From the NCBI GenBank assembly GCA_965261545.1, contig CBDHDF010000002.1, positions 352,001-416,000 of the forward strand: a stretch of DNA of 64,000 bases, read 5' to 3'. Source of the DNA: Bdellovibrionales bacterium (GTDB lineage: Bacteria; Bdellovibrionota; Bdellovibrionia; Bdellovibrionales; UBA1609). The translations under genes were made by a program, and so were the position numbers. This document shows, in pieces, positions 1 through 49,503 of this stretch (its first letter is position 1; each line of letters starts with the position of its first letter). The notes below the pieces were generated by a model that saw only the letters and a program-made list of their open reading frames with translations, had not been told where the DNA came from and did no database searches.

Positions 1-498
1 GATCGTTATTTGAAAGAAATATCCAAAAAGGCAGATATTCGCCATGCTCACTTGGAAAAAAGAACAAGAGAACTCAACGAATTGTTTACGGGGCAATGGG
101 GAAAACTGATAGAAAGCCTTGTTAAAGGTGACTTGGTAAGGCTTCTCAATGAAAGAAATATCCAAGTGATGGGGCTTGCCCAGGAAAATTTTCGCAGGCG
201 GAATGGAGAAGAATACGAGGTTGATATCATTGCAGTCAATGGGCGGGAGGTTGTTGTTGTGGAAGTAAAAACCACTTTAAAAAATCAGCACCTTGACCAT
301 TTTATAGAAAAGCTTGGCATGTTTAAAGATATTTTTCCAGAGTACAAAGACAAGATAGTTTATGGAGCCATAGCTTATTTGAAGGCTGATGAAGGGTCTC
401 ATCACAGGGCTGAAAAAGAAGGTCTTTTTGTGATCCGAGCCACGGGGAATAGTGCGACCCTTACGAATAAGAAAAAGTTTTCCCCCAAGGTGTTTTAG
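1..498 (+). CDS. A1: coiled-coil + PD-(D/E)XK-like nuclease-fold protein (DUF3782-type), 5' end outside the window
   Basis: Motif EYEVDIIAVNG..VVVVEVKTTL (D..ExK), FPEY, YGAIAY, GLFVI, FSPKVF. Confidence 0.85.
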   Translation, partial: DRYLKEISKKADIRHAHLEKRTRELNELFTGQWGKLIESLVKGDLVRLLNERNIQVMGLAQENFRRRNGEEYEVDIIAVNGREVVVVEVKTTLKNQHLDHFIEKLGMFKDIFPEYKDKIVYGAIAYLKADEGSHHRAEKEGLFVIRATGNSATLTNKKKFSPKVF

Positions 499-681
499 AG
501 GTATTTGGGTGTTCTTAAGGCACTGTACCTATTCAAGGGGGCAGGGAGTTTACAGAGAGAGATTTATATTTTCTCTGGTAAGAAGGAGCAATTTACCTCT
601 TGAACTCTGCGACCCCCATGAATGTTGCTCATGAGCAGCTTGCCTTTTTGGGTTCGTCGTTGTGTCGGAAAAGAGTTGTTC

Positions 682-1692
682 TCAGGATTTTGTGTTTTTG
701 ACTTTTTTACGCAGCTTTTCCACGTCTTTGGAAGTGAGTCTAGTACATAGACAAATCGCTTCTACCTCAAAGCCATTTTGAATCATTCGTAATGCCATCT
801 CTTCACGACCCTCTTCGCGACCCTTTTCAAGACCCTCTTCACGACCCTCTTCGCGACCCTCTTCACGACCCTTTTCAAGACCCTTCTTAAGGCCCTTTTC
901 CTCAGCTTCATCCAAAGAACATTGCAATGCTGACATAACTCTTTGATCCTCCTCGATACTTTCTTTTTCAATCTTACTGAGCACACTTAGCGTGAAATTT
1001 GAATCGTTTCGGTGGATATAATCCACCGCCTTTTGAATAAGGAACTTTTGATCCTTCTCACCCAAGTTTGTACCCATCTGAAACAACTCCACAATGGTCT
1101 CATGGCGAAGCTTCCAGATACTACTCATTATAAGCAAAATCGGCCTAGAAAGCAAATTCCTGCCAACTCCATGGTAAAGGTTTATATCATGGATATTCAA
1201 CAACTTACAACGAAAATTGAGGATATTCTTCCCAAATTTTTGTCTTAAAACGGGAGTGAGCCCATCCAGAGAATCTTGAAAATTCAGGGGGCCTCTCCAG
1301 TGTTTTTGTCGTCCGTGATAGACCAGTATGGGAATGACTGGGTAATTCCAACGATTGTAAACAAGAGTCTGGTACCTCAGAATCTGCTGGAGTACTTGAG
1401 AATCCTGATGACTTTTGTGTTCGAGCAGAAAAAAAAGACGCACTCGTTTTTTGGACCCCTTGACTTGAACTGAGAATAGGAGGTCAATACGCCGCTCATT
1501 GCCCTCTTCATCTGTAAAGACAGTTATTTCTGGTTTGAGAGTTTTCCAGTTAAAGATCTTAAACTCCTGTGTCGTCAAGACAAGACGGAAAATGTCTAGG
1601 CAATATCTCTCATTCAGGAAAGTTTCATTGAATAGAGCATTATGGGCCTGAGACTGTTGTTTTCTTTTTTCTGAGGTTTTCTTTGGCAACAA
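682..1692 (-). CDS. B1: Rpn family recombination-promoting nuclease/putative transposase (YhgA-like), intact
   Basis: N-terminal HNALF, RRIDLLFSV, LLEHKS, PVIPILVYHG and C-terminal (REEG)n-MALRM tail typical of Rpn proteins. Confidence 0.9.
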   Translation of the reverse strand: MLPKKTSEKRKQQSQAHNALFNETFLNERYCLDIFRLVLTTQEFKIFNWKTLKPEITVFTDEEGNERRIDLLFSVQVKGSKKRVRLFFLLEHKSHQDSQVLQQILRYQTLVYNRWNYPVIPILVYHGRQKHWRGPLNFQDSLDGLTPVLRQKFGKNILNFRCKLLNIHDINLYHGVGRNLLSRPILLIMSSIWKLRHETIVELFQMGTNLGEKDQKFLIQKAVDYIHRNDSNFTLSVLSKIEKESIEEDQRVMSALQCSLDEAEEKGLKKGLEKGREEGREEGREEGLEKGREEGREEMALRMIQNGFEVEAICLCTRLTSKDVEKLRKKVKNTKS

Positions 1693-2023
1693 TGTCAGTC
1701 TTTCAAGTGAAGAGGGTTTAAGATGGGGTGGTTTAAGAAGATTATGGACAAGTGTATGAGTATGAGCAAGTGAGCGGAGTTATCTGTTCATAAATCATCA
1801 AGACAAGATAAAAGGGGGTGGGTTCTCCGGTCAAGTCAGATCAAGTCAGAAAGTGGATTGGGGATGGTACCTCTAGTGAAATTACATCCCATGATGACAG
1901 CGATATCACTCATACCTAGCCGATTCAGGAGACCATACCGTCATTATTTGGGGGGAGCTTGAGGCTTGGTATTTCAACAACAACATAGAAAAAGTGTGAG
2001 TTCTGACTGGATATAAAATTTAC

Positions 2024-2768
2024 TTGCAAGGCACTGTCGAGGCTCATGCCCTTTTACCTATATTTTTATATTCAGTCAGAATTCACGAAAAAGTTTCAGA
2101 TTTGAATTTTTACAAGATTTATAATTCCCGTGAGGTGGATGTGATTATCAAGACCAACTCCTCTTTCGTCCATGAGATTTTCCACCCCACTCTCAATAAA
2201 GAAGCTTATGGAGCCTTTTACAGTGGTGAGTCTGTGAATACAGCGAATTTACTGAGCCCTTTACAGGAGAGCGCTCCGCTTGAAGAGTTATGGGAACGAC
2301 AAGGACTATAAGAGCCAAAAGAACAGAAAGAAAAGACTGGAGGAGATTCTAAAAAAGGCGTCTTGTGATGAGAAAACAAAGTATCTTCATTTTCCATGTG
2401 CCTTTTTGGTCAAGAAATATAAGTCGGCCCTTAAGAATATAAATAGCTCTGTGGTCCGAAAGCGTGTGCAGTCTTATTCCATTTTGAGAGATGAGGGACT
2501 GATTCCCAAGGATATCAGCTTTATTCAAAAGGCCATGGAAAATTTGCCCCCCATTGAGAAGAAGAAAGCGGTTTTGCCCGTGGCCAATATGGTTGTCATG
2601 GAGCTTGTCAAAGAGGGGGAGTTTGACCTTGCCAAGACTTGGATCCACAAGCTTGAATCTGAGGGTTTTCTCACGCCCGATGAGTCCCAAGGAATCATCA
2701 AAGGACTGGAGCAGAATATCCAAAAGATTCAAGAGGTTCGGGAGATGATGGCTGCTTCGCCCGTATGA
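2024..2768 (+). pseudogene. C1: hypothetical gene, frameshifted near 2260; the frame continues upstream through a TGA at 1997
   Basis: Two ORFs (2024-2311, 2280-2768) that join into one frame when compared with the other copies. Confidence 0.6.
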
Positions 2769-3129: not shown

Positions 3130-3961
3130 ATGAAGGAGGCGTCAATGTCAGATAGTGCTAAGAAAGTAGGTCCTGAAGTTGTGTGGAAGCTTATGGAGAA
3201 GGTCGCAAAATCCCAAGAAGAGACAGACCGTCATTTTAAAGAGATGTCCAAGGAGGCTGATCTCCAACGGCAGGAGAGAGACCATCACTTCAAAAAAGAT
3301 GTCCAAGGAGGCCGATCTCCAAAGGAAGGAGACAGACCATCACTTCAAAAAGATGTCCAAGGAGGCCGATCTCCAAAGGAAGGAGACAGACCGTCATTTT
3401 AAAGAGATGTCCAAGGAGGCCGAACTTCAAAGGGAGGAAGCCAAACTTCAAAGAAAGGAGACAGATCGTTATTTGAAAGAAATATCCAAAAAGGCAGATA
3501 TTCGCCATGCTCACTTGGAAAAAAGAACGAGAGAACTCAACGAATTGTTTACGGGACAATGGGGAAAACTGATAGAAAGCCTTGTTAAAGGTGACTTGGT
3601 AAGGCTTCTCAATGAAAGAAATATCCAAGTCATGGGGCTTGCCCAGGAAAATTTTCGCAGGCGGAATGGAGAAGAATACGAGGTTGATATCATTGCAGTC
3701 AATGGGCGGGAGGTTGTTGTTGTGGAAGTAAAAACCACTTTAAAGCTGAAGCACCTTGACCATTTTATAGACAAGCTTGGCATGTTTAAAGATATTTTTC
3801 CAGAGTACAAAGACAAGATAGTTTATGGAGCCATAGCTTATTTGAAGGCTGATGAAGGGTCTCATCACAGGGCTGAAAAAGAAGGTCTTTTTGTGATCCG
3901 AGCCACGGGGAATAGTGCGACCCTTACGAATAAGAAAAAGTTTTCCCCCAAGGTGTTTTAG
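3130..3961 (+). pseudogene. A2: coiled-coil PD-(D/E)XK-like gene with +1 A in a homopolymer near 3292-3297 (possibly a sequencing error)
   Basis: CAAAAAAGATG versus CAAAAAGATG in sister copies. Confidence 0.8.
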
Positions 3962-4144: not shown

Positions 4145-5110
4145 TCAGGATTTTGTGTTTTTGACTTTTTTACGCAGCTTTTCCACGTCTTTGGAAGTGA
4201 GTCTAGTACATAGACAAATCGCTTCTACCTCAAAGCCATTTTGAATCATTCGTAATGCCATCTCTTCACGACCCTCTTCACGACCCTTTTCAAGACCCTT
4301 CTTAAGGCCCTTTTCCTCAGCTTCATCCAAAGAACATTGCAATGCTGACATAACTCTTTGATCCTCCTCGATACTTTCTTTTTCAAATCTTACTGAGCAC
4401 ACTTAGCGTGAAATTTGAATCGTTTCGGTGGATATAATCCACCGCCTTTTGAATAAGGAACTTTTGATCCTTCTCACCCAATTTGTACCCATCTGAAACA
4501 ACTCCCACAATGGTCTCATGGCGAAGCTTCCAGATACTACTCATTATAAGCAAAATCGGCCTAGAAAGCAAATTCCTGCCAACTCCATGGTAAAGGTTTA
4601 TATCATGGATATTCAACAACTTACAACGAAAAATTGAGGATATTCTTCCCAAATTTTTGTCTTAAAACGGGAGTGAGCCCATCCAGAGAATCTTGAAAAT
4701 TCAGGGGGCCTCTCCAGTGTTTTTGTCGTCCGTGATAGACCAGTATGGGAATGACTGGGTAATTCCAACGATTGTAAACAAGGGTCTGGTACCTCAGAAT
4801 CTGCTGGAGTACTTGAGAATCCTGATGACTTTTGTGTTCGAGCAGAAAAAAAAGACGCACTCGTTTTTTGGACCCCTTGACTTGAACTGAGAATAGGAGG
4901 TCAATACGCCGCTCATTGCCCTCTTCATCTGTAAAGACAGTTATTTCTGGTTTGAGAGTTTTCCAGTTAAAGAGCTTAAACTCCTGTGTCGTCAAGACAA
5001 GACGGGAAAATGTCTAGGCAATATCTCTCATTCAGGAAAGTTTCATTGAATAGAGCATTATGGGCCTGAGACTGTTGTTTTCTTTTTTCTGAGGTTTTCT
5101 TTGGCAACAA
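4145..5110 (-). pseudogene. B2: Rpn family gene with several single-base indels (possibly consensus errors); C-terminal part 4145-4351 intact
   Basis: Near-identical to B1 but split into ORFs 4621-4995, 4383-4652 and 4145-4402. Confidence 0.85.
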
Positions 5111-6297
5111 TGTCAGTCTTTCAAGTGAAGAGGGTTTAAGATGGGGTGGTTTAAGAAGATTATGGACAAGTGTATCCTGAAATCCCCTTCAGTTATGACT
5201 AGGTTTCAGGACCAAAGGCTTGCATAAACCAAGACCTAAGACCTGCCTTCAATGAGAAGAATAGTGGCCATTATTTTTTTGTATACTCAAAATAAATAAA
5301 TCTTTGCCTCCCTTTGTTTCTTTTCGACTGGATTAAGGTATGGAAACTGAAGTACAATTTCATTATGAGGACAGGCTCGACAGGCTCTAAAGCAACGAAT
5401 ACACTATATTTCAAACCTGTGATCCACATGAGTTCCTATGTTAAAGGGCTGAGTAAATAGTCTTCTGCTTCCCTGATATTTCTCCCAAAACGACCTTACC
5501 TGTTGCTAACTTATAAAATTTCAAGCGATCTAATATTTTATAGACTTCATCTTTTGAAAAATCTTTATAAAGTTCCTTTTCTTTCATTACATGATCGATC
5601 CATGAAATTAGAATCAAGGCTATAAAGTTAATAAAAAGACTTCCTTTCATATTTTGAAGAGAATGCATTCTATTTCTTTTTTCATTAAGATTATGCCTTT
5701 AAAGAGAAGAATATTTTTTCTATACTATCTTTGTTTCTATACAAAGATAGTACCTCATCCCTAGAGATATTTATCTTAGAATCTGTTAGAAGGATGACGC
5801 ACCCCATGCGATTGATTTCTACCTCAAGATCATCCACATTTCTTTCTAAAACAAAATATTCATTCTCCTTTTTAATCTTAAAAAATTTCTTTTGAACTCC
5901 GAAAGTATCATTTATATAGGTGCGACAAGAAGATTCATCTTGAAACGTCTTCTGATAGAAAATATTTTCAAATTCATATATCTTTGCAAGAAATTTAGAC
6001 TCTTGTTGAGTTCTTTTTTTCTTGTCCAAATATAGGTGGGCTACACAATCTACCTTCCCTATTTTTATCTCTTTCTGACAATACCAATAGGTATCTCCTT
6101 GGAAACCAAATGCTGAAGCCGAAGACGAAAGGTTAAGAAGATAAGGAATTTTACAAGTTCTTTGGAAAGATTTGACACAAAGCTCATAGGGATAATATAA
6201 GATAGTCCTTTATCATCCAAGTCCTTGATATTGCTTTGGCTATAAAATCCTTTGTCTAAAACCAAACATTTTAGATTGATTTTGTACTCCTTAGCTA

Positions 6298-8445
6298 GTT
6301 TCTGTCCAGAAAGGCCCATTTTTTGTTCTCTGACACTCCCCATTGAGCCTCCCAATACCTCAATGGGGGAGTGAGAGTTGGAGATTTGCCCCACAAACTC
6401 TACAGATTAAGGGGAAAAAGGTCTTTAAGCGACTTGCGCCCTAGTTTTTTCGATTTGAAGACGCACCCCTACCTTTGGAAGATTTTAGCACCTTCGACCT
6501 GGTCCATTGCTGTTATTCCTAATGGATAAATTTAGGTGACAGTTGATAATTCATGTCTTGCCAAGACAACAAAATTATAGGCACAAACAGCATTCTTCAC
6601 ATACCTCTTAAAACCATCATGCCCTTTCCAGTAAGCAACTCTCATACCAAAACATCTCTTAAGGAATGAAATAACAGCCTCTATTCCGGCTCTCCAATTG
6701 AGAAGATTTTTAAAGACCCAAGCACTTTTAACCATCTTTAATATCTTCATTCCTTTTTTTTCTGGGAAGCAAACATCTTTAGCTCCCATCTCTTTGGCCT
6801 CTTCAAGATTTTCTTTTGAAGCAAACCCACCATCTGCACTTACTTTTACAGGGCAAGCCCCATAGGTTTGTGTCACTGAATTCATAACTTTTAAAAACAT
6901 ATCAGAGTCTGCGGGGTTGCCATCAGGGATCTGACAATCTAAAATCATGTTGCTTTGCCCTGAGGTCAGAAAGATTTTATGCCCAAACTCGACTTCTCTT
7001 TGCCCCTTTACAATAATGTCTGTATGCGGTTCAAAGATGGATAGGACCTTTTTTTCAGAAGATACTTTTTTCCCCTCAATAACTCTTTTTTGAGTTTGAA
7101 AGATGATTTTTTCCAGGTAGAAAGCAACATTTTCTAACTGTTTTAAACTCTTTTTCAAGGCCTTCATCTTCACACATCTTTTTTCGTTTTTTATCTTTCT
7201 GATAGTATCAGGCAATCCTTTGTTCAATTTGGTAGCGATTTTTAAGAACTCTTTATAATAAGGAAGTCTTTCTTCATCATTCTTGGAATTATTAATCTTG
7301 TAAAGCAATGTTTTTGTTCTTTTGACATCTTCTTTTGAAATAAGTCGCCAGAAGTCTTTGTTGACATTCTTACGAACTTTTTTAAATTCTCTTTCTGTAA
7401 CTCTTATGCAATCATATAAAAGAGATGCATCCGTTGGATGATGAATGTTTGATTTCGTCACTGTACTGTCCACTCTCATTTTCTTACACGGCTCAATCTT
7501 TTGATCTCTTGCATCTGAAACTAAAGAGGCGCTAATAATTCCCCAAGTTTCTTCACTTATTTGAACAATCAAGTCCTGTAAGGTGGAGTGAGCGTAATTT
7601 TCTTCCAATTCAAGGCCCAGAAAAGCTCTGGTGGATACTGAATCGACAAGATTAAAGGCTAACGCACGATAGGAAAGACCTCTTATGGATTTAAGAATAG
7701 CCACCTTGAGAACTTGCTCCGATGTCATACCAATATCACCAGAATCTTTCTTTTCTTTAACAAGGTCTTCATGAACCATATGGGCAAACTCTGGATGGCG
7801 ATCAATGATGTTATTAATTTGCTGCAATTCTGTACTGAGTTGGTGGTTAGGATATTGGGAAAAGAGTCCCAACTGTGTCTTCTTCAAATGGCGCATAGTC
7901 CCCCCTTTGGTGAAAGTTTCTCTTTAATTTTTATATTAACATACGTTTTTTTGAGGGAAAAAAGTGAGCAAGGATGTCTTTTAAGAAGAAAAAAATCAGA
8001 GAGGTTCTCGGAGAACATGGATAAGAATTCTACCTCATAGAGAGGTTCCCACGCCTCCTAAAACCTACATAAAAAATAAATGAAGAATAAAATATCAAAA
8101 ATTATTTCTCTGAAAAAACACGTCAAGTATTTTTTGAAGTTGATGCGCAACGTAATGTTATTTCCCTGAAGGAGGTTTGAAATCACCACGGTGGAAACAC
8201 AGGTTGATCCAACTCTTCCTCTCATATCAAGTAACGCAGTTGATAGCCACATAAGTCACTGAAAGGGAGGGGCTGTGAAAGGTTCGTCAAGAGAGGGGGA
8301 GGGGAACTTATTTTATTTTTCCGTTTTATGTAAGTAACTGAATTTACACGGATTATGTTTGATGGACTCCATTTTAAAGCATAAAATCTAAAGGGAAGGC
8401 ATGTAAATACTTAAAACTACTTAACTTTCTTCCCTGGACAGGAAC
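6298..8445 (-). mobile_element. ISNCY/IS5-like element, copy 1
   Basis: Ends GTTTCTGTCCAG and CTGGACAGGAAC, flanked by a TAGCTA duplication (6292-6297, 8446-8451). Confidence 0.88.
6532..7896 (-). CDS. DDE transposase (ISNCY/IS5-like), 454 aa
   Basis: RVDSTV..SNIHHPTD, SIFEPHTDII, EFGHK, ADGGF and RAGIEAVIS motifs. Confidence 0.9.
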   Translation of the reverse strand: MRHLKKTQLGLFSQYPNHQLSTELQQINNIIDRHPEFAHMVHEDLVKEKKDSGDIGMTSEQVLKVAILKSIRGLSYRALAFNLVDSVSTRAFLGLELEENYAHSTLQDLIVQISEETWGIISASLVSDARDQKIEPCKKMRVDSTVTKSNIHHPTDASLLYDCIRVTEREFKKVRKNVNKDFWRLISKEDVKRTKTLLYKINNSKNDEERLPYYKEFLKIATKLNKGLPDTIRKIKNEKRCVKMKALKKSLKQLENVAFYLEKIIFQTQKRVIEGKKVSSEKKVLSIFEPHTDIIVKGQREVEFGHKIFLTSGQSNMILDCQIPDGNPADSDMFLKVMNSVTQTYGACPVKVSADGGFASKENLEEAKEMGAKDVCFPEKKGMKILKMVKSAWVFKNLLNWRAGIEAVISFLKRCFGMRVAYWKGHDGFKRYVKNAVCAYNFVVLARHELSTVT

Positions 8446-9535
8446 TAGCTAAAGTAAGAATATTATTCAAAGTAGTCACATCATTGATGCTACAAGGATA
8501 TACTCTGTAACTAATTGGAAGACTCGCACTCTTAGACTTTGAATCTATTTTTATGTCTTGACTTAAAATTCCTAAGTTGGTTTGGTCCAAGTTATCGCCA
8601 TCTCTATTGTAACCTCTTTCTAAAAAATCATTGCCAGAACCATAAGAAGAAATAGATGTAATATCAAACATCACAGCTTGAGAAGCAGATTTATTCCTTT
8701 TAATCCATTCAAGAAAAAAATTCTCAATTGCTTCTTCATTACGACCAACCGTGAATAAGAATTTACTTATTGACCGTGAATCTAAATAGTTTTCACCAGA
8801 AACATAAGAGTCTTCGCACCAGAGGGGATACAAATAATAAGGCTCTTTCTTAATAACTTTGAAAAAAGATAAATAAAGAATTTCTTCATAATCTTCGGGA
8901 AAAATCTTTTTAAGTGCTTGTACTAAATTTAGCTTTTTGCTAATCTTTTTTAACAAGTGAAGAGAGCCAACATCCCAAGAGCCTGTGGGAATGGAACACC
9001 GAGTTGTAGGAATGAGTTCCCCCGTGGCCTCATCCTTTTTACCAAGATACACCCTTTTTTGACGAGGCTGCTTTTTCTTTTTATCCCAGTAGCTCGTGGA
9101 CTTATAGAGGTAGACCTTACCCTTGATTTTTTGCTCATATATGAAAGACATAGTCATAATTATGACTATGGATGCGTCGCATCGTCAATGTTTAGGGGAG
9201 ATAAAACCTCATTATGTTCGATTTGAAGAGAAAATCTAGGCTTAAGTCTAACACCTAGTCATAATTTTGCGGATTTCAGGGTGTATGAGTATGAGCAAGT
9301 GAGCGGAGTTATCTGTTCATAAAAGGGGGTGGGTTCTCTGGTCAAGTCAGATCAAGTCAGAAAGTGGATTGGGGATGGTACCTCTAGTGAAATTACATCC
9401 CATGATGACAGCGATATCACTCATACCTAGCCGATTCAGGAGACCATACCGTCATTATTTGGGGGGGAGCTTGAGGCTTGGTATTTCAACAACAACATAG
9501 AAAAAGTGTGAGTTCTGACTGGATATAAAATTTAC

Positions 9536-10281
9536 TTGCAAGGCACTGTCGAGGCTCATGCCCTTTTACCTATATTTTTATATTCAGTCAGAATTCACGA
9601 AAAAGTTTCAGATTTGAATTTTTACAAGATTTATAATTCCCGTGAGGTGGATGTGATTATCAAGACCAACTCCTCTTTCGTCCATGAGATTTTCCACCCC
9701 ACTCTCAATAAAGAAGCTTATGGAGCCTTTTACAGTGGTGAGTCTGTGAATACAGCGAGTCTACTGAACCCTTTATACAGGAGAGCGCTCCGCTTGAAGA
9801 GTCATGGGAACGACAAGGACTATAAGAGCCAAAAGAACAGAAAGAAAAGACTGGAGGAGATTCTAAAAAAGGCGTCTTGTGATGAGAAAACAAAGTACCG
9901 CCATTTTCCAGTGCTTTTTTGGTCAAGAAATATAAGTCAGCCCTTAAGAATATAAATAGCTCTGTGGTCCGAAAGCGTGTGCAGTCTTATTCCATTTTGA
10001 GAGATGAGGGACTGATTCCCAAGGATATCAGCTTTATTCAAAAGGCCATGGAAAATTTGCCCCCCATTGAGAAGAAGAAAGCGGTTTTGCCCGTGGCCAA
10101 TATGGTTGTCATGGAGCTTGTCAAAGAGGGGGAGTTTGACCTTGCCAAGACTTGGATCCACAAGCTTGAATCTGAGGGTTTTCTCACGCCCGATGAGTCC
10201 CAAGGAATCATCAAAGGACTGGAGCAGAATATCCAAAAGATTCAAGAGGTTCGGGAGATGATGGCTGCTTCGCCCGTATGA
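9536..10281 (+). pseudogene. C2: hypothetical gene, frameshift near 9910
   Basis: Copy of C1, split into ORFs 9536-9955 and 9919-10281. Confidence 0.6.
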
Positions 10282-23227: not shown

Positions 23228-23269
23228 AGGTATTTGGGTGTTCTTAAGGCACTGTACCTATTCAAGGGG

Positions 23270-38147: not shown

Positions 38148-38223
38148 CCTGAATTCTACAAAAATGGTAACAAGGATTCTGGCCTAAGGTCCTGACATTG
38201 TGAAGCGACGGCTGGGATTAATA
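38148..38223 (-). mobile_element. Isolated right end of IS1634-c
   Basis: Reverse complement of ~51389-51464; begins CCTGAATTCTACAAAAATGGTAACAAGG. Confidence 0.9.
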
Positions 38224-39070: not shown

Positions 39071-41237
39071 TGTTAGCTGACAATTAAAATGCCCCACCGT
39101 CGCCAATGAAAAGTGGCCACTTTTCAGAGGAGGACCTATGGTGATTTTTGGCATTGTCAACCGAGACGCATATAATCAATTGATATTACTCATAAAAAGG
39201 CTCCGAGCTGATAAGAACTCCTTTTGGGTTCTTGTCGACCTGGAAAGGGGCTCCGTGTTGGAGAGTCCTTCCATGACAGCCTATTCAGGTTCCATATTTG
39301 TCATTTGTAGACTGTTTCTGGATTTCAATGAGGTTAAATATATAGTCAAGAAAAGCCTGTTTAGGCTGTGCCCATTTTCTAAAGTATTTAAATTCCACAA
39401 GATTCCAACATTTGCCTCAATTTTCATGGAATTTCTTTCTGAAGACAGGCTTCCCTTAAAGCCGTCGCCAATTAAAATGTCCCACTTTCAATATGGAGGT
39501 TGTCGCCAATGAAAAGTGACCAATCTTCAGGGAGTGTTCAAATACTAGACAATGAAGTCTCTTCTTCTGATATAGATACTAAGCTCACAGAGTCCCTCCC
39601 TTTTGCAACTCAAAAGGTTAGCAATGAGGAGGATCTTATGATTAGTCAATACACTTTCGGCCGCATTCGTGACCTGAGTCACAGTGGTAAAAATAAGACA
39701 GAAATATCTCGTGAATTAGGGATCAATCGTAAGACGGTGCGCAAGTACTGTGAGTCCAACACCCCACCGAAGTACAAGGCGAGGTCCAAAAGAACTCGCC
39801 CAGATCCCCTTAATGGATATATGGATCGGGTGAAGTACTTTTTGAAGTTGAACCCAAGTAACACCGCCCGTGAAATATATGAGCTATTAGTTGAGGAGGG
39901 TTATCGTGGGAGTGAGAGAACGGTTCAGAGAAGAGTTTGTGAGATTCTTGGTTCTCGCCCCAAGGAGCGTTTTTTCAGCCAAAGATATGATCCTGGAGAA
40001 CAGGCTCAGTTTGATTTTAAGGAGAAGGTTGCTTTACCATTTGCCGATGGTGTTCAGATCGTTCATCTCCATTTTGGAACATTGCCTTGTAGTGGCACCT
40101 GTTGGGTTCGTGCCTACCCCTTTCTTGTCTATGAGTGTTTCATCGATGGGGTGCATGCTTTTTTGAAAAGATAGGTGGGATGAGTGCGAACATCCGTATT
40201 GATAATTTATCTCCCTGTGTGAAGAAAGTTCTTAAAGGAAATCAGCGAATTTACACCCAATCTTTTGATCGAGCCATCCAATACTATGGATTTAAGGTTC
40301 TTCCCTGCCGCGCAGGGAAGGGCTCTGACAAGGGAGATGTGGAGCGTGATATTCGAACCTTCAGTTCTCGGATAAAAAATATTGTTAGAAACAAAGGAAT
40401 TGTTTTTAAAGACTGGGATCATTTGAATCAGTTTTTAGAGTCTTATATGGATCAGCATCAGAGTGACTCCACCAAATCTCGCTTTGAGGAGGAGGCCAAA
40501 GTTCTTAAGCCTTTGCCTCCACGAGATGAAGATATTCTCTGTAAGGTGAATATTTGTCAAAGTAATGGTTATGGGACTTTGAGAATAGGTAAAACCACAT
40601 ATTCCATACCTGATGAGGTGATCCAATCTCCCTGTAAAACCGTACAGGGTCCCTATCATGTCACGATCTATCGTGCAGGAGGGAAGCAAGAAATTGTCGC
40701 TCGCCATCAAAGAAAACCTGATGGGGAGCATAGTTGCTGAATTTCACGAGTTTGACCCACTGAATTTCACGAAGTTTGACCCACCCCTCAGTCAGTCAAT
40801 TTGAGGTCCAATTTTGAATTTCACGGTGGCTCAAACTTTGTCAATTTAAACCTTCTTTTTTCTGCTGACTCAGTAACTTTTACACCCTCAATGTCACGAT
40901 GTCCCAACGGTGGGTTAAGGCTTATTTGCCAGAATGTTAGATGCCAACTAAAATTGGCCACTTTGTCATTGAGAATCTCGACCCTCCCCATTTCTGAGGT
41001 TTCAATGGAGGGTTTTTCAATGGGGATGTTGAATCCATTGCTCAAAATGGCAGAGAATAGCGAGCCAGTTATCCACAAATTTATCCATGGTGACGCTGCG
41101 TCTGTGACCCCGATGTCTATCAACGCAGCGCTGCCGTGGGTAAATTTTGTGGATAACTGGCGGGTACATGATTCAATAGTTCCGATGGAGTGTCTCCCGA
41201 TGGTGTCTTCCAAGGTCTGCCTTTGCATGGATTCTCC

Positions 41238-41966
41238 TTAAATCGTCTTTCTCTGCCTAAATGAGCTTCCAGACATGGCTATTTTGATAGCTTGAGAGGT
41301 TATGCGATCCATAATAGCTTCACAAACGATGGGATCCTCAATGACTTCACTCCAATTTTTTATTGGAAGTTGGGTTGTAAGAATGAGGCTCAGGTCAGGG
41401 CCTCGTTCATCAATCACATCGTAAAGGTCTTGATATTGGTTAGAGGTAAGGGGCTTGATACCAAAATCATCCAACACAAGTATCGAGACTGATTTTAGCC
41501 TTTTAAGGAAGTTTAGATATGTCCCCTGGGCTCTTTCTAAGTTGAATTTTTCAACAAGAGTATTCATTCTGAAGAACTGAGTGGAAAAACCTTGGCGACA
41601 GGCGTGATTACCTATGGCACAAGCCAAATATGACTTTCCAACACCCGTTGGGCCAGAGATAATTATATTTTGACCTCTTTGAGCAAATCTCATAAGGGCT
41701 AGATCACTCAAAACTCTTCGATCGACTCCTCGGTTGGATTTGGTTTCAAAGGCCTCAAGGCTTGCTTTTTGCTGCAAAGCTGCTCTTTTGATAAGTCTTG
41801 AGACCTTCTGATTTTCACGATGGATTTTTTCGTCCTCAAAGATGACATTTAGAAAGTCCTCGTAACCAAGATCCTGCTCCTCAGCTTCTTTGAGCCTCTG
41901 GCTCAAGGTTGCTAAAACTCCCCTCATTTTTAATATCTCTAATAAATTTTCTGTTTGTTTAATCAT
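41238..41966 (-). CDS. istB: IS21 helper AAA+ ATPase IstB
   Basis: Walker A GPTGVGKS, LVLDDFG, AIMDR. Confidence 0.95.
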   Translation of the reverse strand: MIKQTENLLEILKMRGVLATLSQRLKEAEEQDLGYEDFLNVIFEDEKIHRENQKVSRLIKRAALQQKASLEAFETKSNRGVDRRVLSDLALMRFAQRGQNIIISGPTGVGKSYLACAIGNHACRQGFSTQFFRMNTLVEKFNLERAQGTYLNFLKRLKSVSILVLDDFGIKPLTSNQYQDLYDVIDERGPDLSLILTTQLPIKNWSEVIEDPIVCEAIMDRITSQAIKIAMSGSSFRQRKTI

Positions 41967-42047
41967 TTTCTTCTCCTATACGACCTCTCTTATGGAGGTC
42001 AAAATGACCCGTTAGGTGGTTGAGAACCACCCACCGGGGCTATGTGA

Positions 42048-43565
42048 TTAGTGGCGGCAAGCATTCTCCCAGTGCTCTGAACCTCTTAAATTTTCATTAG
42101 GTTGACGGCAGACTCTTGGCTCCTCTTTTCGATGACTTTTTGCTGAAATAACTTTCTCAACTCCACGAACCCTAATGTCACTTAAAGCTGCATCTACAAA
42201 AAATGAGCAAGCCTGCTCCAAAGAAGCTGTTGAATACCGTTTTCTTAGATTGAGTATCCCCTGAACACGACGAAGATACATAAGCGGATGGCGAGGCTCT
42301 TTGATAAGCCGCTCGGCAACTTTGTGAATGCTTTCTCCAAGGCTTGATGCCTCTTTAAGTACATTTTGTGGCGTTTGCTCTAAAATGGCCCGGTGGGACT
42401 CAGGGAGATGAGATTTTGTCGTAAAGTAGCGCCCTCGACTGCCCTGGGGGATGTGATGTATCGCCACCCGCTCTAATTCTGAATAAACCTCCAAGCATTG
42501 TTGGCTAATACGAATATCTAACTTCTTGCCGCGATGCTTATAAGGAACAGAGTAAAAATTGTAGTTATATTGAATGTGACAATCCGGATGAACCTTGGAA
42601 TGCTTCCAGAATCCACTCTCATAGCGTCTTTCAGGAAGAGGATTCAATTTTGACTTCTCAAAAGATTCAAACTTCTGTCGACGACTCAACCCATACTTTT
42701 TTTGAATACGATCATTGAAAATAGCTGCCAAATGCTTCAACTCAGCGTTGATGTCTGCTAGAGAATACATTTGCCGCTCTCTTATCTGGGGCCAAGACCA
42801 GCGCCAAAAGACTCCAAGGGTATTTTCGATAAGACTCTTGTCTTTGGGGCGAGATGGCCTCATCGCCAAAGGAGCCACATTGTAGTGATCACACAAGAGG
42901 TGAAACTCAGAGTTAATATCGGGGTCATAAGTATCAGCTCTTGTCACTTGAACCTTTGCGTTATCAAAAGCAATGGTTCCGGTCACACCACCAAAAAACT
43001 CAAAACCAGAAGCTATGGAGGAAAAAACATCTTCCCGCTGCTCTGTTAATGTGGCGCATGGAAAGAAAAACTGACTCGATGGAAGTATCATTCCAAATAA
43101 TCGACATGGGATGAACTCCCCAGTCTTGGCATCTGTATAGCCAAAACAAGAGTCTTTTCCCTTATAGTCAAACTCACTCCGTTCACCAGGGGTGAATGTC
43201 TGGTGCATATCAAGCTTTATACTTGGGTGCCTCCGACGAAACTCTCTCCAAAAAGAAAGATAACTCACACCGTCAATCTCGGACTGAATATGTCGCTCCC
43301 AGTAATGAGCCAATTGAGTCCCTAGGCTTTGCTTGAGGCGAACATCTGTCCAATTCACCTTGGATGACCATGGGGCTTGGTAGGGCCCATGCGACCCCTT
43401 TGAGCGGCTGTTAGGGCCTCCGGGACTATCCTTCACATACTTCTTCACAGTGTTCCGACTAACACCCATAGCTCGAGCTATTTGTCTCGAACTGAGTCCA
43501 AGCTCTATGTATTTCTTAATATTGTTGATCATTCTTGCTCCTTTTTTCTTACCTTGTTTGCCCAT
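42048..43565 (-). CDS. istA: IS21 transposase IstA
   Basis: N-terminal HTH, PGERSEFDY, FDNAK, PKDKSLIE and YSVP motifs. Confidence 0.93.
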   Translation of the reverse strand: MGKQGKKKGARMINNIKKYIELGLSSRQIARAMGVSRNTVKKYVKDSPGGPNSRSKGSHGPYQAPWSSKVNWTDVRLKQSLGTQLAHYWERHIQSEIDGVSYLSFWREFRRRHPSIKLDMHQTFTPGERSEFDYKGKDSCFGYTDAKTGEFIPCRLFGMILPSSQFFFPCATLTEQREDVFSSIASGFEFFGGVTGTIAFDNAKVQVTRADTYDPDINSEFHLLCDHYNVAPLAMRPSRPKDKSLIENTLGVFWRWSWPQIRERQMYSLADINAELKHLAAIFNDRIQKKYGLSRRQKFESFEKSKLNPLPERRYESGFWKHSKVHPDCHIQYNYNFYSVPYKHRGKKLDIRISQQCLEVYSELERVAIHHIPQGSRGRYFTTKSHLPESHRAILEQTPQNVLKEASSLGESIHKVAERLIKEPRHPLMYLRRVQGILNLRKRYSTASLEQACSFFVDAALSDIRVRGVEKVISAKSHRKEEPRVCRQPNENLRGSEHWENACRH

Positions 43566-44089
43566 AGACACCTCCTCGTTAATGCGTAGCGCAGAAAGAA
43601 TATCTATGAAGATCTAAGTGGGTCAATGTTTGGTGAAATTCAGTGGGTCAAACTTCGTGAAATTGGGTGGGTCAAACCAGGTGAAATTGGGTGGGTCAAA
43701 CTAGGTGAAATTTTGCATAGTCTTCTTCTTGAACATATCCTTCCCTCTTTAGTTCGTAAGCCGCAAGCCATGGTAAGATGGGCTCACCGATCCATTCTTT
43801 TTCCAACAAATGTGTTTGAAAATTTTTATCAATACCTCAAGCAACAAGATTCAAGCCGTGCCGAGCATGAATATTTAAGAGTTATCAACTTGATTCAGCA
43901 TGTGAGTTGGCAGGACTTATCTACAGCCATGGAGCTTCAATTAGAAAGTCGTGAGATTTTCGACTTTAAATCCATAAAAGATTTGCTCTTAGGAAATCCC
44001 ACCAAAATTAATTTGAATGACCAACAAAAACCACTTCAACCTAGATTGTCTCAATATGACAGTCTTGTTCCAAACATAGGAGGTTCTTA

Positions 44090-44489
44090 ATGAATCACGA
44101 AGAACTTATAGGTTCTCTTAAAAAACTCCGACTTCCAGCGATGGCGGATGAATATGTTGCAACGGCTAGAGTTGCCGAAAAAACAAAAAAGACGTATGAA
44201 CAGTATTTAGGTATACTCGTTCAAAATGAGCTTGCTGACAAGCATTCCCAGAGAGTGAAAAGATTGCTTAAGGGGGCCAAGCTTCCTCAACTTAAATCAC
44301 TCCAAACTTATAACTTCCAGAAAAGAACGGGAGTGACAGCTCAGCAAATTAATTGGATGGCAGAGGGAGAGTGGGTCAGAAAAGCCTGTAATGTTGTGTT
44401 TTACGGAAGCTTTGGAATGGGGAAAAGTCATTTGGCCATGTCCCTAGTTCGTTCACTCTGTGAACAAGGCTATCGATGTTTATGGGTCA
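44090..44489 (+). pseudogene. istB: IstB, truncated after Walker A and fused to array spacer DNA
   Basis: LKKLRLPAM and GSFGMGKSHLA, then an abrupt switch to array sequence. Confidence 0.88.
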
Positions 44490-44761
44490 CAATTATCTTC
44501 ATTTTAACCTCATCTTCTATGCCCACAAAGCATTCAAAAACACCAAGGTTTACAAAAAAGCCAATACAAGACGCTTTTTAAGAATCTCCTCCAGCCTCTT
44601 CTTTCTTTTTTTTTGGCTTTTATAGTCTTTGTCGTTCCCATGACTCTTCAAGTTGAGCACTCTCCTGTACAAAGGGCTCAGTAGACTCGCTGTATCTACA
44701 GACTCGTCACTGTAAAAGGCTCCATAAGCTTCTTTAACGAGGTATCAAAGTCCTTTTTGCC

Positions 44762-45634
44762 TTAGAACACCTTCGGAGAAAATTCTTTTTGATTGGTGAT
44801 GGTGGCACTATTGCCGGTAGCTCGGATTACAAAAAGACCTTTTTTTTCAGCCTTGTTATGAGCCCCTTCATTGGCCTTCAAATAAGCTATGGCACCGTAA
44901 ATTATCTTGTCTTTGTACTCTGGAAAAATATCTTTAAACATGCCGAGCTTTTCTATAAAATGGTCAAGGTGATGATTTTTTAAAGTGGTTTTTACTTCCA
45001 CAACAACAACCTCCCGCCCATTGACTGCAATGATATCAACCTCGTATTCTTCTCCATTCCGCCTGCGAAAATTTTCCTGGGCAAGCCCCATCACTTGGAT
45101 ATTTCTTTCATTGAGAAGCCTTACCAAGTCACCTTTAACAAGGCTTTCTATCAGTTTTCCCCATTGCCCCGTAAACAATTCATTGAGTTCTCTTGTTCTT
45201 TTTTCCAAGTGAGCATGGCGAATATCTGCCTTTTTGGATATTTCTTTCAAATAACGATCTGTCTCCTTCCTTTGAAGTTTGGCTTCCTCCCTTTGAAGTT
45301 CGGCCTCCTTGGACATCTCTTTGAAATGACGGTCTGTCTCCTTCCTTTCAAGGTCGGCCTTCTCCCTTTGAAGTTCGGCCTCCTTGGACATCTTTTTCAA
45401 ATAACGATCTGTCTCCTTCCTTTCAAGGTCGGCCTCCTTGGACATCTTTTTGAAGTGACGGTCTGTCTCCTTCCTTTGGAGATCAGCCTCCTTGGACATC
45501 TCTTTGAAATGACGGTCTGTCTCCTTCTGTTGGAGACTTGTCTCTTCTTGGGATTTTGCTACCTTCTCCATAAGCTTCCACACAACTTCAGGACCTACTT
45601 TCTTAGCACTATCTGGCATTGACGCCTCCTTCAT
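44762..45634 (-). CDS. A15: coiled-coil PD-(D/E)XK-like protein
   Basis: Intact ORF. Confidence 0.88.
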   Translation of the reverse strand: MKEASMPDSAKKVGPEVVWKLMEKVAKSQEETSLQQKETDRHFKEMSKEADLQRKETDRHFKKMSKEADLERKETDRYLKKMSKEAELQREKADLERKETDRHFKEMSKEAELQREEAKLQRKETDRYLKEISKKADIRHAHLEKRTRELNELFTGQWGKLIESLVKGDLVRLLNERNIQVMGLAQENFRRRNGEEYEVDIIAVNGREVVVVEVKTTLKNHHLDHFIEKLGMFKDIFPEYKDKIIYGAIAYLKANEGAHNKAEKKGLFVIRATGNSATITNQKEFSPKVF

Positions 45635-45981: not shown

Positions 45982-46938
45982 CTAGAACACCTTCGGAGAA
46001 AATTCTTTTTGATTAGTGATGGTGGCACTATTGCCGGTAGCTCGGATTACAAAAAGACCTTTTTTTTCAGCCTTGTTATGAGCCCCTTCATTGGCCTTCA
46101 AATAAGCTATGGCACCGTAAATTATCTTGTCTTTGTACTCTGGAAAAATATCTTTAAACATGCCGAGCTTTTCTATAAAATGGTCAAGGTGATGATTTTT
46201 TAAAGTGGTTTTTACTTCCACAACAACAACCTCCCGCCCATTGACTGCAATGATATCAACCTCGTATTCTTCTCCATTCCGCCTGCGAAAATTTTCCTGG
46301 GCAAGCCCCATCACTTGGATATTTCTTTCATTGAGAAGTCTTACCAAGTCACCTTTAACAAGGCTTTCTATCAGTTTTCCCCATTGCCCCGTAAATAATT
46401 CGTTGAGCTCTTTCGTTCTTTTTTCCAAGTGAGCATGGCGAATATCTGCCTTTTTGGATATTTCTTTCAAATAACGATCTGTCTCCTTCCTTTCAAGGTC
46501 GGCCTTCTCCCTTTGAAGTTTGGCTTCCTCCCTTTGAAGTTTGGCTTCCTCCCTTTGAAGTTCGGCCTCCTTGGACATCTCTTTGAAATGACGGTCTGTC
46601 TCCTTCCTTTCAAGGTCGGCCTTCTCCCTTTGAAGTTCGGCCTCCTTGGACATCTTTTTCAAATAACGATCTGTCTCCTTCCTTTCAAGGTCGGCTTCCT
46701 CCCTTTGAAGTTCGGCCTCCTTGGACATCTTTTTGAAGTGATGGTCTGTCTCCTTCCTTTGGAGATCGGCCTCCTTCCTTTGGAGATCAGCCTCCTTGGA
46801 CATCTCTTTGAAATGACGGTCTGTCTCCTTCTGTTGGAGACTTGTCTCTTCTTGGGATTTTGCTACCTTCTCCATAAGCTTCCACACAACTTCAGGACCT
46901 ACTTTCTTAGCACTATCTGACATTGACACCTCCATCAC
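45982..46938 (-). CDS. A14: coiled-coil PD-(D/E)XK-like protein
   Basis: Intact ORF. Confidence 0.88.
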   Translation of the reverse strand: MMEVSMSDSAKKVGPEVVWKLMEKVAKSQEETSLQQKETDRHFKEMSKEADLQRKEADLQRKETDHHFKKMSKEAELQREEADLERKETDRYLKKMSKEAELQREKADLERKETDRHFKEMSKEAELQREEAKLQREEAKLQREKADLERKETDRYLKEISKKADIRHAHLEKRTKELNELFTGQWGKLIESLVKGDLVRLLNERNIQVMGLAQENFRRRNGEEYEVDIIAVNGREVVVVEVKTTLKNHHLDHFIEKLGMFKDIFPEYKDKIIYGAIAYLKANEGAHNKAEKKGLFVIRATGNSATITNQKEFSPKVF

Positions 46939-47262
46939 CCATTGGTTTCATTTCACAAATATCACACAACAAAGGCACATGCAAAAATAAGTCCTTATCT
47001 TCATTTTAACCTCATCTTCTATGCCCACAAAGCATTCAAAAACACCAAGATTTACAAAAAAGCCAATACAAGACGCTTTTTAAGAATCTCCTCCAGCCTC
47101 TTCTTTCTTTTTTTTTGGCTTTTATAGTCTTTGTCGTTCCCATGACTCTTCAAGTTGAGCACTCTCCTGTACAAAGGGCTCAGTAGACTCGCTGTATCTA
47201 CAGACTCGTCACTGTAAAAGGCTCCATAAGCTTCTTTAACGAGGTATCAAAGTCCTTTTTGC

Positions 47263-48156
47263 CTAGAACACCTTCGGAGAAAATTCTTTTTGATTGGTGA
47301 TGGTGGCACTATTGCCGGTAGCTCGGATTACAAAAAGACCTTTTTTTTCAGCCTTGTTATGAGCCCCTTCATTGGCCTTCAAATAAGCTATGGCACCGTA
47401 AATTATCTTGTCTTTGTACTCTGGAAAAATATCTTTAAACATGCCGAGCTTTTCTATAAAATGGTCAAGGTGCTGATTTTTTAAAGTGGTTTTTACTTCC
47501 ACAACAACAACCTCCCGCCCATTGACTGCAATGATATCAACCTCGTATTCTTCTCCATTCCGCCTGCGAAAATTTTCCTGGGCAAGCCCCATCACTTGGA
47601 TATTTCTTTCATTGAGAAGCCTTACCAAGTCACCTTTAACAAGGCTTTCTATCAGTTTTCCCCATTGCCCCGTAAACAATTCATTGAGTTCTCTTGTTCT
47701 TTTTTCCAAGTGAGCATGGCGAATATCTGCCTTTTTGGATATTTCTTTCAAATAACGATCTGTCTCCTTCCTTTCAAGGTCGGCCTTCTCCCTTTGAAGT
47801 TTGGCTTCCTCCCTTTGAAGTTCGGCCTCCTTGGACATCTTTTTGAAGTGATGGTCTGTCTCCTTCCTTTGGAGATCGGCCTCCTTGGACATCTTTTTGA
47901 AGTGATGGTCTGTCTCCTTCCTTTGGAGATCGGCCTCCTTGGACATCTTTTTGAAGTGATGGTCTGTCTCCTTCCTTTGGAGATCGGCCTCCTTCCTTTG
48001 GAGATCAGCCTCCTTGGACATCTCTTTGAAATGACGGTCTGTCTCCTTCTGTTGGAGACTTGTCTCTTCTTGGGATTTTGCGACCTTCTCCATAAGCTTC
48101 CACACAACTTCAGGACCTACTTTCTTAGCACTATCTGACATTGACGCCTCCATCAC
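47263..48156 (-). CDS. A13: coiled-coil PD-(D/E)XK-like protein
   Basis: Intact ORF. Confidence 0.88.
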   Translation of the reverse strand: MMEASMSDSAKKVGPEVVWKLMEKVAKSQEETSLQQKETDRHFKEMSKEADLQRKEADLQRKETDHHFKKMSKEADLQRKETDHHFKKMSKEADLQRKETDHHFKKMSKEAELQREEAKLQREKADLERKETDRYLKEISKKADIRHAHLEKRTRELNELFTGQWGKLIESLVKGDLVRLLNERNIQVMGLAQENFRRRNGEEYEVDIIAVNGREVVVVEVKTTLKNQHLDHFIEKLGMFKDIFPEYKDKIIYGAIAYLKANEGAHNKAEKKGLFVIRATGNSATITNQKEFSPKVF

Positions 48157-48480
48157 CCATTGGTTTCATTTCACAAATATCACACAACAAAGGCACATGC
48201 AAAAATAAGTCCATTATCTTCATTTTAACCTCATCTTCTATGCCCACAAAGCATTCAAAAACACCAAGATTTACAAAAAAGCCAATACAAGACGCTTTTT
48301 AAGAATCTCCTCCAGCCTCTTCTTTCTTTTTTTTTGGCTTTTATAGTCTTTGTCGTTCCCATGACTCTTCAAGTTGAGCACTCTCCTGTACAAAGGGCTC
48401 AGTAGACTCGCTGTATCTACAGACTCGTCACTAAAAGGCTCCATAAGCTTCTTTAACGAGGCATCAAAGTCCTTTTTGCC

Positions 48481-49503
48481 TTAGAACACCTTCGGAGAAA
48501 ATTCTTTTTGATTGGTGATGGTGGCACTATTGCCGGTAGCTCGGATTACAAAAAGACCTTTTTTTTCAGCCTTGTTATGAGCCCCTTCATTGGCCTTCAA
48601 ATAAGCTATGGCACCGTAAATTATCTTGTCTTTGTACTCTGGAAAAATATCTTTAAACATGCCGAGCTTTTCTATAAAATGGTCAAGGTGCTGATTTTTT
48701 AAAGTGGTTTTTACTTCCACAACAACAACCTCCCGCCCATTGACTGCAATGATATCAACCTCGTATTCTTCTCCATTCCGCCTGCGAAAATTTTCCTGGG
48801 CAAGCCCCATCACTTGGATATTTCTTTCATTGAGAAGCCTTACCAAGTCACCTTTAACAAGGCTTTCTATCAGTTTTCCCCATTGCCCCGTAAATAATTC
48901 GTTGAGCTCTTTCGTTCTTTTTTCCAAGTGAGCATGGCGAATATCTGCCTTTTTGGATATTTCTTTCAAATAACGATCTGTCTCCTTCCTTTCAAGGTCG
49001 GCCTTCTCCCTTTGAAGTTTGGCTTCCTCCCTTTGAAGTTCGGCCTCCTTGGACATCTTTTTCAAATAACGATCTGTCTCCTTCCTTTCAAGGTCGGCCT
49101 TCTCCCTTTGAAGTTTGGCTTCCTCCCTTTGAAGTTCGGCCTCCTTGGACATCTTTTTGAAGTGATGGTCTGTCTCCTTCCTTTGGAGATCGGCCTCCTT
49201 GGACATCTTTTTGAAGTGATGGTCTGTCTCCTTCCTTTGGAGATCGGCCTCCTTGGACATCTTTTTGAAGTGATGGTCTGTCTCCTTCCTTTGGAGATCG
49301 GCCTCCTTGGACATCTTTTTGAAGTGACGGCCTGTCTCCTTCCTTTGGAGATCAGCCTCCTTGGACATCTCTTTGAAATGACGGTCTGTCTCCTTCTGTT
49401 GGAGACTTGTCTCTTCTTGGGATTTTGCTACCTTCTCCATAAGCTTCCACACAACTTCAGGACCTACTTTCTTAGCACTATCTGGCATTGACGCCTCCTT
49501 CAT
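48481..49503 (-). CDS. A12: coiled-coil PD-(D/E)XK-like protein
   Basis: Intact ORF. Confidence 0.88.
   Translation of the reverse strand: MKEASMPDSAKKVGPEVVWKLMEKVAKSQEETSLQQKETDRHFKEMSKEADLQRKETGRHFKKMSKEADLQRKETDHHFKKMSKEADLQRKETDHHFKKMSKEADLQRKETDHHFKKMSKEAELQREEAKLQREKADLERKETDRYLKKMSKEAELQREEAKLQREKADLERKETDRYLKEISKKADIRHAHLEKRTKELNELFTGQWGKLIESLVKGDLVRLLNERNIQVMGLAQENFRRRNGEEYEVDIIAVNGREVVVVEVKTTLKNQHLDHFIEKLGMFKDIFPEYKDKIIYGAIAYLKANEGAHNKAEKKGLFVIRATGNSATITNQKEFSPKVF

Follow-up and report, generated by a model that had tools for sequence, protein, structure and literature searches.

Organization of the locus

The window analysed here is a stretch of 64,000 nucleotides (nt) from a Bdellovibrionales bacterium, corresponding to positions 352001-416000 of contig CBDHDF010000002.1 (C2) in a genome of 4.3 Mb (G000; 11 contigs, completeness 96.8%). 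It holds most of a tandem array of genes for a DUF8196 protein, in which an N-terminal coiled-coil stalk runs into a predicted PD-(D/E)XK nuclease head. The intact copies have nearly the same head, with stalks up to 100 residues apart. A tblastn search of the genome matches the head at 21 places, comprising the 18 copies of the array (C2:342379-401488; 16 with an intact frame), a remote 19th copy at C2:640527 whose head is 84% identical, and two fragments. Three whole, intact copies lie upstream of the window, namely c1 (260 amino acids, aa; C2:342379), c2 (242 aa; C2:345768) and c3 (278 aa; C2:350549), together with the 5' part of c4, which starts 251 nt before the window. The 15 paralogues counted by an earlier sequence-only reading are found again as 15 copies overlapping window 1-49488, while that inventory left out the three upstream copies, five Rpn genes, five gene 3' fragments and nine inserts bearing insertion sequences (IS), eight of them in 1..49503 and one just beyond.

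The array consists of two units, and half of it is built from the larger. The 3.4-kb unit contains a gene 3' fragment, the nuclease gene and a convergent Rpn gene, and the 1.2-1.4-kb unit contains only the nuclease gene and a spacer, in which this fragment is represented by a shorter piece. The fragment, of 681 nt, is 95-96% identical to the 3' end of a gene of 1031 aa with a spermidine-synthase domain at C2:331790-334885. A ribosome-binding motif precedes 17 of the 18 nuclease copies, that of c13 being weakened. Directly 5' of this site, the copies in 3.4-kb units carry an 8-nt repeat that varies in number (for example near window 10600). A promoter scan of window 31500-34700 gave 7 sites against 3.6 +/- 2.1 in shuffled sequence, with one 9/12 site upstream of c10, and is uninformative.

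The window opens on the plus strand with the 3' part of c4 (249 aa, intact; 1..498), followed by an intact Rpn gene on the minus strand (YhgA-like, PF04754; 682..1692), with a tail of 12-nt repeats and a candidate internal start, and by a fragment of the unit (2024..2768, plus). The next unit comprises c5 (3145..3961, plus), an Rpn copy showing five homopolymer indels of one base each (4145..5110, minus), upstream of which sits a nested IS insert with DDE transposases (5176..9280, strand not assigned), and a fragment (9536..10281, plus). It is followed by c6 (278 aa, intact; 10669..11505, plus), an intact Rpn gene (11689..12723, minus) and a fragment (13055..13800, plus). Beyond these lie c7 (253 aa, intact; 14170..14931, plus), which was used for the structure model, an Rpn copy (15115..19856, minus) split by an IS4 element (16005-18025) and a second IS (18099-19856), and a fragment (20189..20934, plus). 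Two intact copies on the plus strand, c8 (260 aa; 21310..22092) and c9 (256 aa, with a recombinant head haplotype; 22457..23227), precede an intergenic IS4 (23270..24666, strand not assigned), an Rpn copy (24838..29160, minus) whose 3' end bears an IS (24838-26738) and whose interior holds an IS4 (26810-28222), and a fragment (29492..31658, plus) split by another IS4 (30109-31519).

The plus strand continues with c10 (267 aa; 32029..32832) and c11 (342 aa; 33197..34225), which has the longest stalk, of 18 modules, and is the first of a run of nuclease-only units with c12 (34590..35551), c13 (306 aa; 35900..36820) and c14 (281 aa; 37160..38005). Beyond a nested IS block (38148..44491, strand not assigned), the last four copies occupy the minus strand, namely c15 (285 aa; 44762..45619), c16 (313 aa; 45982..46923), c17 (292 aa; 47263..48141) and c18 (335 aa; 48481..49488). 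The two parts of one split spacer lie at window 38147 and 49714, each break being marked by an IS end; therefore, c15-c18 were inverted by an IS event after the array had formed.

Ten primary IS-bearing inserts were mapped, IS4 being the only IS family name assigned. None of the ten lies in a nuclease open reading frame (ORF), though these ORFs account for 40% of the DNA outside IS elements (p 0.006, or 0.009 when a site hit twice enters the count only once). That site is an intergenic base carrying IS4 twice, in opposite orientation (window 23270 and C2:346539, after c2), and is a target hot spot. The content of the array (nuclease, Rpn, gene fragment, spacers and IS) includes no reverse transcriptase, recombinase, integrase or silent-cassette layout. 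Beyond the array, an ORF at C2:418316-419491 lies between two parts of a serine-recombinase-like gene, the 3' part being at window 57164-58015; this ORF has motifs resembling those of a group II intron reverse transcriptase.

Repeat modules and stalk length

The stalks of all 18 copies parse completely into in-frame modules of 21 and 33 nt, in agreement with the sequence-only reading. The 16 intact copies measure 242, 249, 253, 256, 260, 260, 267, 278, 278, 281, 285, 292, 306, 313, 335 and 342 aa. The 12 lengths previously listed for complete intact copies are exact, but the accompanying claim that no two are alike fails across the array, where 260 and 278 aa each occur twice and 14 lengths are distinct. 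The probability of at least 14 distinct lengths is 0.11 with resampled module counts and 0.55 with uniform sampling of 45 attainable lengths, and that of 12 distinct lengths among 12 is 0.04-0.19. Over-dispersion of the 16 intact lengths is not significant under either null model, so a set of all-different lengths would be no more than chance. The module strings are distinct in 18 of 18 copies, with three pairs only one module apart. Antisense ORFs over the stalk were considered and dismissed as by-products of the repeat.

Two copies are out of frame, c5 through an additional A in a homopolymer and c12 through a loss of 13 nt inside one module. The frameshift of c5 is probably a consensus error, because the adjoining Rpn copy has five homopolymer indels. 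Single-base homopolymer indels cluster over three adjoining genes at window ~2200-5100, which probably reflects local consensus error.

Support for the assembly

The objection that the array is mis-assembled, raised alongside the sequence-only reading, was checked against the contigs of four public runs from two studies, covering the left edge of the array; three of the four runs derive from one sample, possibly the source. Mis-assembly is unlikely, because the depth over the head exceeds that of single-copy genes 7.6-9 times (27.4 in runs X1 and X3, against 3 and 3.6) and the unit junctions occur in public contigs, that between 3.4-kb units in all four runs and that of the short unit in X3. 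Contig depth is not a copy number and the ratio serves as a consistency check only; the assembly predicts 10-14 times, of which about 65-75% is observed. Run X5 gave no coverage of the single-copy genes at the flank, an observation left out of account here. That a long-read assembler concatenated a few copies or strain variants is accordingly extremely improbable. The homopolymer indel cluster, which points to thin local support, the depth shortfall and the fact that no public contig examined spans the array would fit such an artefact, but the depth and both junctions speak against it, and the copies are separated by linked substitutions and distinct IS insertions. Assembler collapse of identical units was also considered as a source of the all-distinct pattern and rejected, since the same contig keeps a letter-perfect tandem. 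This tandem, of 3 x 3130 nt at C2:159500-168700, contains a different gene and is itself possibly an artefact.

Origin of the stalk variety and selection on the head

Outside the stalk (75 nt + 504 nt), 50 of 579 sites are variable. This DNA forms two haplotypes, with up to 46 differences, and mosaics of them, so the earlier description of the head as nearly invariant requires correction. Recombination among the copies, which had been proposed, is borne out by the four-gamete test, with incompatibility at 262 of the 1081 informative pairs of sites (minimum number of recombination events, Rm = 8). Neighbouring copies are more alike in Mantel tests both in non-stalk DNA (rho 0.48) and in module strings (rho 0.42; p <= 0.001), as unequal crossing-over predicts. 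Two pairs, c8/c10 and c12/c13, have identical non-stalk DNA with different stalks, and module changes therefore outrun substitutions. The variety of the array is thus largely shown to have arisen, in a genome rich in IS elements, by tandem duplication, unequal recombination and slippage of the repeats, and a dedicated diversifying enzyme is not needed.

Substitutions between the head haplotypes are mostly silent, with nonsynonymous (pN) and synonymous (pS) values of 0.028 and 0.20 (pN/pS ~0.15), and dN/dS to the remote copy is 0.10-0.12. Judged by these substitutions, the head is under purifying selection. The distances from the N-terminal cap to the neck keep helical phase (period 3.56, R 0.62 versus a jittered maximum of 0.37; 73 of 111 homologues used, 38 dropped), which upholds the statement that modules of 7 and 11 residues preserve the register.

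Protein family and predicted structure

A precomputed match to PF26618 (DUF8196) is present on the genome's own copies P0001-P0008, and the top atlas cluster is likewise DUF8196 (cosine 0.97; family on 31% of its members). PF12644 (DUF3782) occurs on 13-29% of members in look-alike atlas clusters, and a Pfam scan of ORFs of 258 and 347 aa gave no match at E <= 0.1 to PF12644 or PF07788 (DUF1626). Homologues number 2413 among 2787 candidates and form 1967 clusters at 50% identity (E <= 0.001), so that DUF8196/DUF3782 nucleases count as widespread. A literature search on DUF3782, DUF8196, DUF1626, paREP, COG5493 and variable-repeat proteins found no functional study among the results listed, nor any mention of DUF8196 in them.

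The model of c7, built from 112 sequences, has a predicted local distance difference test score (pLDDT) of 92 and shows a helix at residues 10-138 running into a PD-(D/E)XK head at 121-253. The closest structures to the head are NucS 2vld (Z 10.0; root-mean-square deviation 3.0, 106 aligned) and Can2 7bdv (Z 9.0), followed by AF1548 (Z 8.7), VC1899 and Card1 6wxw (both Z 8.6). Foldseek returns NucS as the sole match at E <= 0.001, and the Hjc profile scores 25.4 bits against a cut-off of 21.1. Residues E126, D163, E176 and K178 are invariant in the 112 aligned sequences and present in 19 of 19 copies. The model and the intact E/D/ExK motif support the nuclease fold suggested earlier and make nuclease activity of DUF8196 plausible; the fold shared with NucS and Can2/Card1 does not in itself show function. 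In the modelled copies the stalk is predicted to form one uninterrupted helix, 129 to 209 residues long. The single-sequence model of the 342-aa copy (pLDDT 70; predicted template modelling score 0.27) shows one long helix only. A sequence search of solved structures gave just four weak stalk matches to helical proteins (E 0.17-0.95). In profile scans the N-terminal end matched neither a DNA-binding nor a sensor domain, and no signal peptide-type N-terminus was seen.

Rpn genes of the array and elsewhere in the genome

The convergent gene of the 3.4-kb unit matches PF04754 at 83.6 bits (cut-off 21; 11689..12723) and TIGR01784 at 46.4 bits, below its cut-off of 52.1. Zhong et al. 2023 (PMC10400941) describe Rpn proteins as anti-phage toxins with intragenic antitoxins whose cognate inhibition is determined by the number of repeats; in E. 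coli a single additional 4-residue repeat is enough to abolish it. They also show that rpn arrays arise by tandem duplication; repeat variation would prevent inhibition in trans (Koonin 2023, PMC10400984). The array Rpn copies have tails of 12-nt (4-residue) repeats, and the seven tails all differ in sequence, with six lengths. All 15 tails inspected carry GAGGAGG 11 nt ahead of an in-frame ATG, and the repeats start ~14 residues further on, within the 8-20 residues expected of an Rpn-type toxin-antitoxin gene, making this ATG a candidate internal start on sequence grounds.

A second Rpn cluster, at C2:285776-312236, 39-66 kb upstream of the window, contains eight genes, of which seven are almost the same in sequence; two Uma2-like genes and one for a Panacea antitoxin are interspersed (to C2:312998). 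Its eight repeat counts are all distinct within nine values, an almost complete ladder (p 0.009 given the range, 0.04 without the divergent eighth copy; both post hoc), and neutral simulation with wide bounds gives p up to 0.17. A third, dispersed Rpn-type family (PF12784) has 13 near-full-length copies in the genome, with two length collisions among 12 intact ones; the collisions fall between sub-lineages, and no two copies that agree over the N-terminal 200 residues share a repeat count. In view of the neutral p of up to 0.17 and these collisions, avoidance of equal repeat counts by Rpn is a hint, not a result.

Distribution in related genomes

The survey included 60 relatives and 300 genomes of the phylum, with only part of the carriers' loci fetched. 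The head is found in seven of the relatives, with 3-11 matches each, and in three of the phylum genomes, with 10, 23 and 13 matches; the 23 matches of the 2.8-Mb genome G236 are dispersed, none with an internal stop. The stalks of 56 copies from nine genomes were parsed, six hits having been dropped for want of an anchor or start. Of 35 pairs of copies from the same genome whose heads reach 90% identity or more, 33 differ in the stalk, although the pairs are not independent. Most of the relatives' copies are dispersed, and the repeat units differ from lineage to lineage. By sequence comparison, a constant head with a variable stalk is a trait of the whole family. The locus-specific, purpose-built library proposed by the sequence-only reading is therefore not sustained, since dispersed copies in relatives show the same pattern, the lengths are not over-dispersed, and recombinase, reverse transcriptase and silent cassettes are absent.

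Where dispersed copies share flanks, these are mostly 50-250 nt upstream with ragged ends, and homology often stops near the stop codon; inspection by eye revealed no terminal repeats or fixed ends. Searches of mobile replicons were negative, as tblastn matched none of 72,556 plasmid and 50,697 phage records and there was no PHROG match. Neither a conserved partner gene nor an antitoxin was found among the nearest neighbours of the relatives' copies, and no stalk-only module DNA was found outside the array in G000. Rpn, Uma2 and Panacea antitoxin genes lie near the array and a Fic gene lies beside the remote copy, which accords with the defence-like setting described earlier. PF12784 Rpn genes are present in three of seven nuclease carriers versus two of 53 non-carriers, kin not being independent. 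Type IV pilin-like genes occur near the array (C2:330914) and near copies in relatives (L015, L016, L017 and L033). In another relative (G017, L019:3273-4529), a secreted-looking protein of 14-residue repeats is encoded directly downstream of a broken nuclease copy.

Interpretation of the array

The preferred reading, with a probability of about 0.55, is that the array encodes a retained nuclease of the defence or conflict type, with a length-tolerant oligomerisation stalk that varies passively; both the defence role and the oligomeric coiled coil are inferred. Its account of the array itself is largely shown: both units were multiplied head to tail by unequal recombination, copies exchange sequence, and slippage and out-of-register crossing-over alter the modules more quickly than point mutations build up, giving each copy its own stalk. 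Selection keeps frame, helical register and active site, and IS elements later broke into spacers and Rpn copies and turned four copies around. The stalk may assemble a parallel oligomer that brings the NucS/Can2/Card1-like heads together, forming a stand-alone nuclease that may act against foreign DNA and be kept in many copies like Rpn, with stalk length a tolerated variation within the register and not a selected trait. Support for this reading comes from the family match, the fold and the invariant catalytic residues, from the recombination, slippage and register results, and from the signs of selection (silent substitutions, intact frames, ribosome-binding motifs and IS avoidance). Its defence-like side draws on the none-or-several distribution among relatives and phylum genomes, on the Rpn, Uma2, Panacea and Fic genes nearby, and on the PF12784 Rpn genes of carriers.

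Several observations weigh against a passively varying, retained defence nuclease. The relatives' neighbours are mostly unrelated housekeeping genes; about half of 14 neighbours are conflict-type, but these were chosen for Pfam as unusual, and the proportion does not amount to a test of enrichment. PADLOC yields weak matches, the best at E 5e-5 (CARF_PDDEXK, 253-aa copy), and none for the 342-aa copy. With 54% charged and 17% hydrophobic residues, the stalk is compatible by composition with a single charged helix. The pN/pS signal may predate the amplification, and avoidance of nuclease ORFs by IS elements weakens to p 0.06 once the count is restricted to the older half. Hundreds of transposase ORFs in the genome suggest weak selection, transposase-type ORFs or fragments making up its four largest protein clusters (136, 78, 71 and 71). 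Finally, 18 distinct module strings among 18 copies also fit diversifying selection.

Such selection would be expected from a self-pairing code like that of Rpn, in which stalk length and module order decide assembly partners, so that each copy forms its own oligomer or is blocked only by its own stalk-only form, and differing copies are favoured. This explanation is doubtful as a whole. It draws on the E. coli precedent reported in passages of PMC10400941, on the co-amplification of Rpn with its own variable repeats and candidate internal start, on the distinct nuclease strings, and on the second Rpn cluster, where distinctness has p ~0.01 given the range. The conserved N-terminal cap and neck also point this way, as a parallel oligomer of unequal stalks would be unable to align both ends. 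However, the nuclease lengths are not over-dispersed, two paralogue pairs in relatives have identical stalks, and the searches turned up no antitoxin gene, no gene for a stalk alone and no conserved partner. Translation from an internal start cannot produce an N-terminal fragment, and the Rpn signal is post hoc, with neutral p up to 0.17 and the collisions in the PF12784 family. It can only tentatively be proposed that DUF8196 is a second independent PD-(D/E)XK defence family with a repeat-encoded barcode for self-recognition; if true, amplification and slippage would generate mutually orthogonal nucleases, and two barcoded families, DUF8196 and Rpn, would have been amplified in one unit.

Selfish or neutral amplification of a promoter-plus-ORF cassette under relaxed selection in an IS-laden genome, leaving extra copies useless to the host and spread perhaps helped by nicking by the nuclease itself, is unlikely. 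The genome-wide IS expansion, the other tandem triple in the contig (3 x 3130 nt), the dead gene fragment carried along in the unit, the short upstream stretches shared by dispersed copies, the frequent end of their homology near the stop codon, and the none-or-several distribution all speak for it, but frames, ribosome-binding sites and active sites are kept, IS hits fall in Rpn copies and spacers, and 23 of 23 matches in G236 lack an internal stop; terminal repeats or fixed ends were not seen by eye and the plasmid and phage collections gave no match. A ruler or sensor arm, as the sequence-only reading proposed, with stalk length setting the distance of the cut site or modules binding phage or host proteins, is very improbable and found no direct support. 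The predicted continuous helix is suited to it, and EcoR124I/II, as cited in passages of PMC10400941, offers a precedent for a repeat-length ruler; yet no DNA-binding or sensor domain occupies the N-terminal end, and modules built from few near-identical units that differ by lineage fit structure better than recognition.

The locus provides a natural allelic series of 16 intact genes with nearly the same head, beside an Rpn series of known repeat logic. It raises the questions of the role of DUF8196 and of repeat-length variation as a general bar to cross-talk between paralogues in conflict nucleases. Should length prove to make no difference, the array would be an ordinary case of gene amplification whose repeat is prone to slippage.

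Comparison with known systems

Contingency loci and cassette-based antigenic variation produce variants from repeat slippage and recombination among paralogues. In contrast, every copy of this array has a start and a ribosome-binding site to itself (clear in 17 of 18), and the array has neither a single expression site nor a dedicated recombinase.

The sequence-only reading knew of no characterised system of this design, which is only partly true, given Rpn, whose genes lie inside the array. This characterised PD-(D/E)XK toxin has a helix of variable repeat number and occurs in tandem arrays (passages of PMC10400941). Rpn also resembles the stalked nuclease in using that helix for oligomerisation, a role predicted for the stalk, in its patchy multi-copy occurrence and in the lack of terminal repeats. 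The variable helix is nevertheless N-terminal with 7- and 11-residue units in the stalked nuclease and C-terminal with 4-residue units in Rpn, and an internal-start antitoxin of the same kind is not possible for the stalked nuclease, for which no inhibitor was found, though a product of proteolysis or frameshifting might conceivably act as one.

Prokaryotic PD-(D/E)XK endonucleases with N-terminal coiled coils have been described under DUF3782 (Hartmann et al., PMC4786415), and DUF1626 is described as coiled-coil-bearing, patchy and of unknown function (Knizewski et al., PMC1913061; Steczkiewicz et al., PMC3424549). Within the sections of these reports drawn on here, DUF8196, DUF3782 and DUF1626 (COG5493, an archaeal-type relative) share an N-terminal stalk, a C-terminal PD-(D/E)XK head and a patchy distribution. 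Unlike DUF1626, which often has Thr in motif III, the array protein keeps ExK, and it lacks a nonad/beta-layer motif. NucS/EndoMS and Can2/Card1 are the closest solved head folds (Z 8.6-10, 12-20% identity), but the array protein has a long helix in place of the CARF sensor or the NucS N-terminal domain.

The family has already been catalogued, and its pattern is seen in other genomes too. This locus stands out for the co-amplification with Rpn and for the size of the array, with 18 tandem copies where the relatives' loci examined have at most three in a row.

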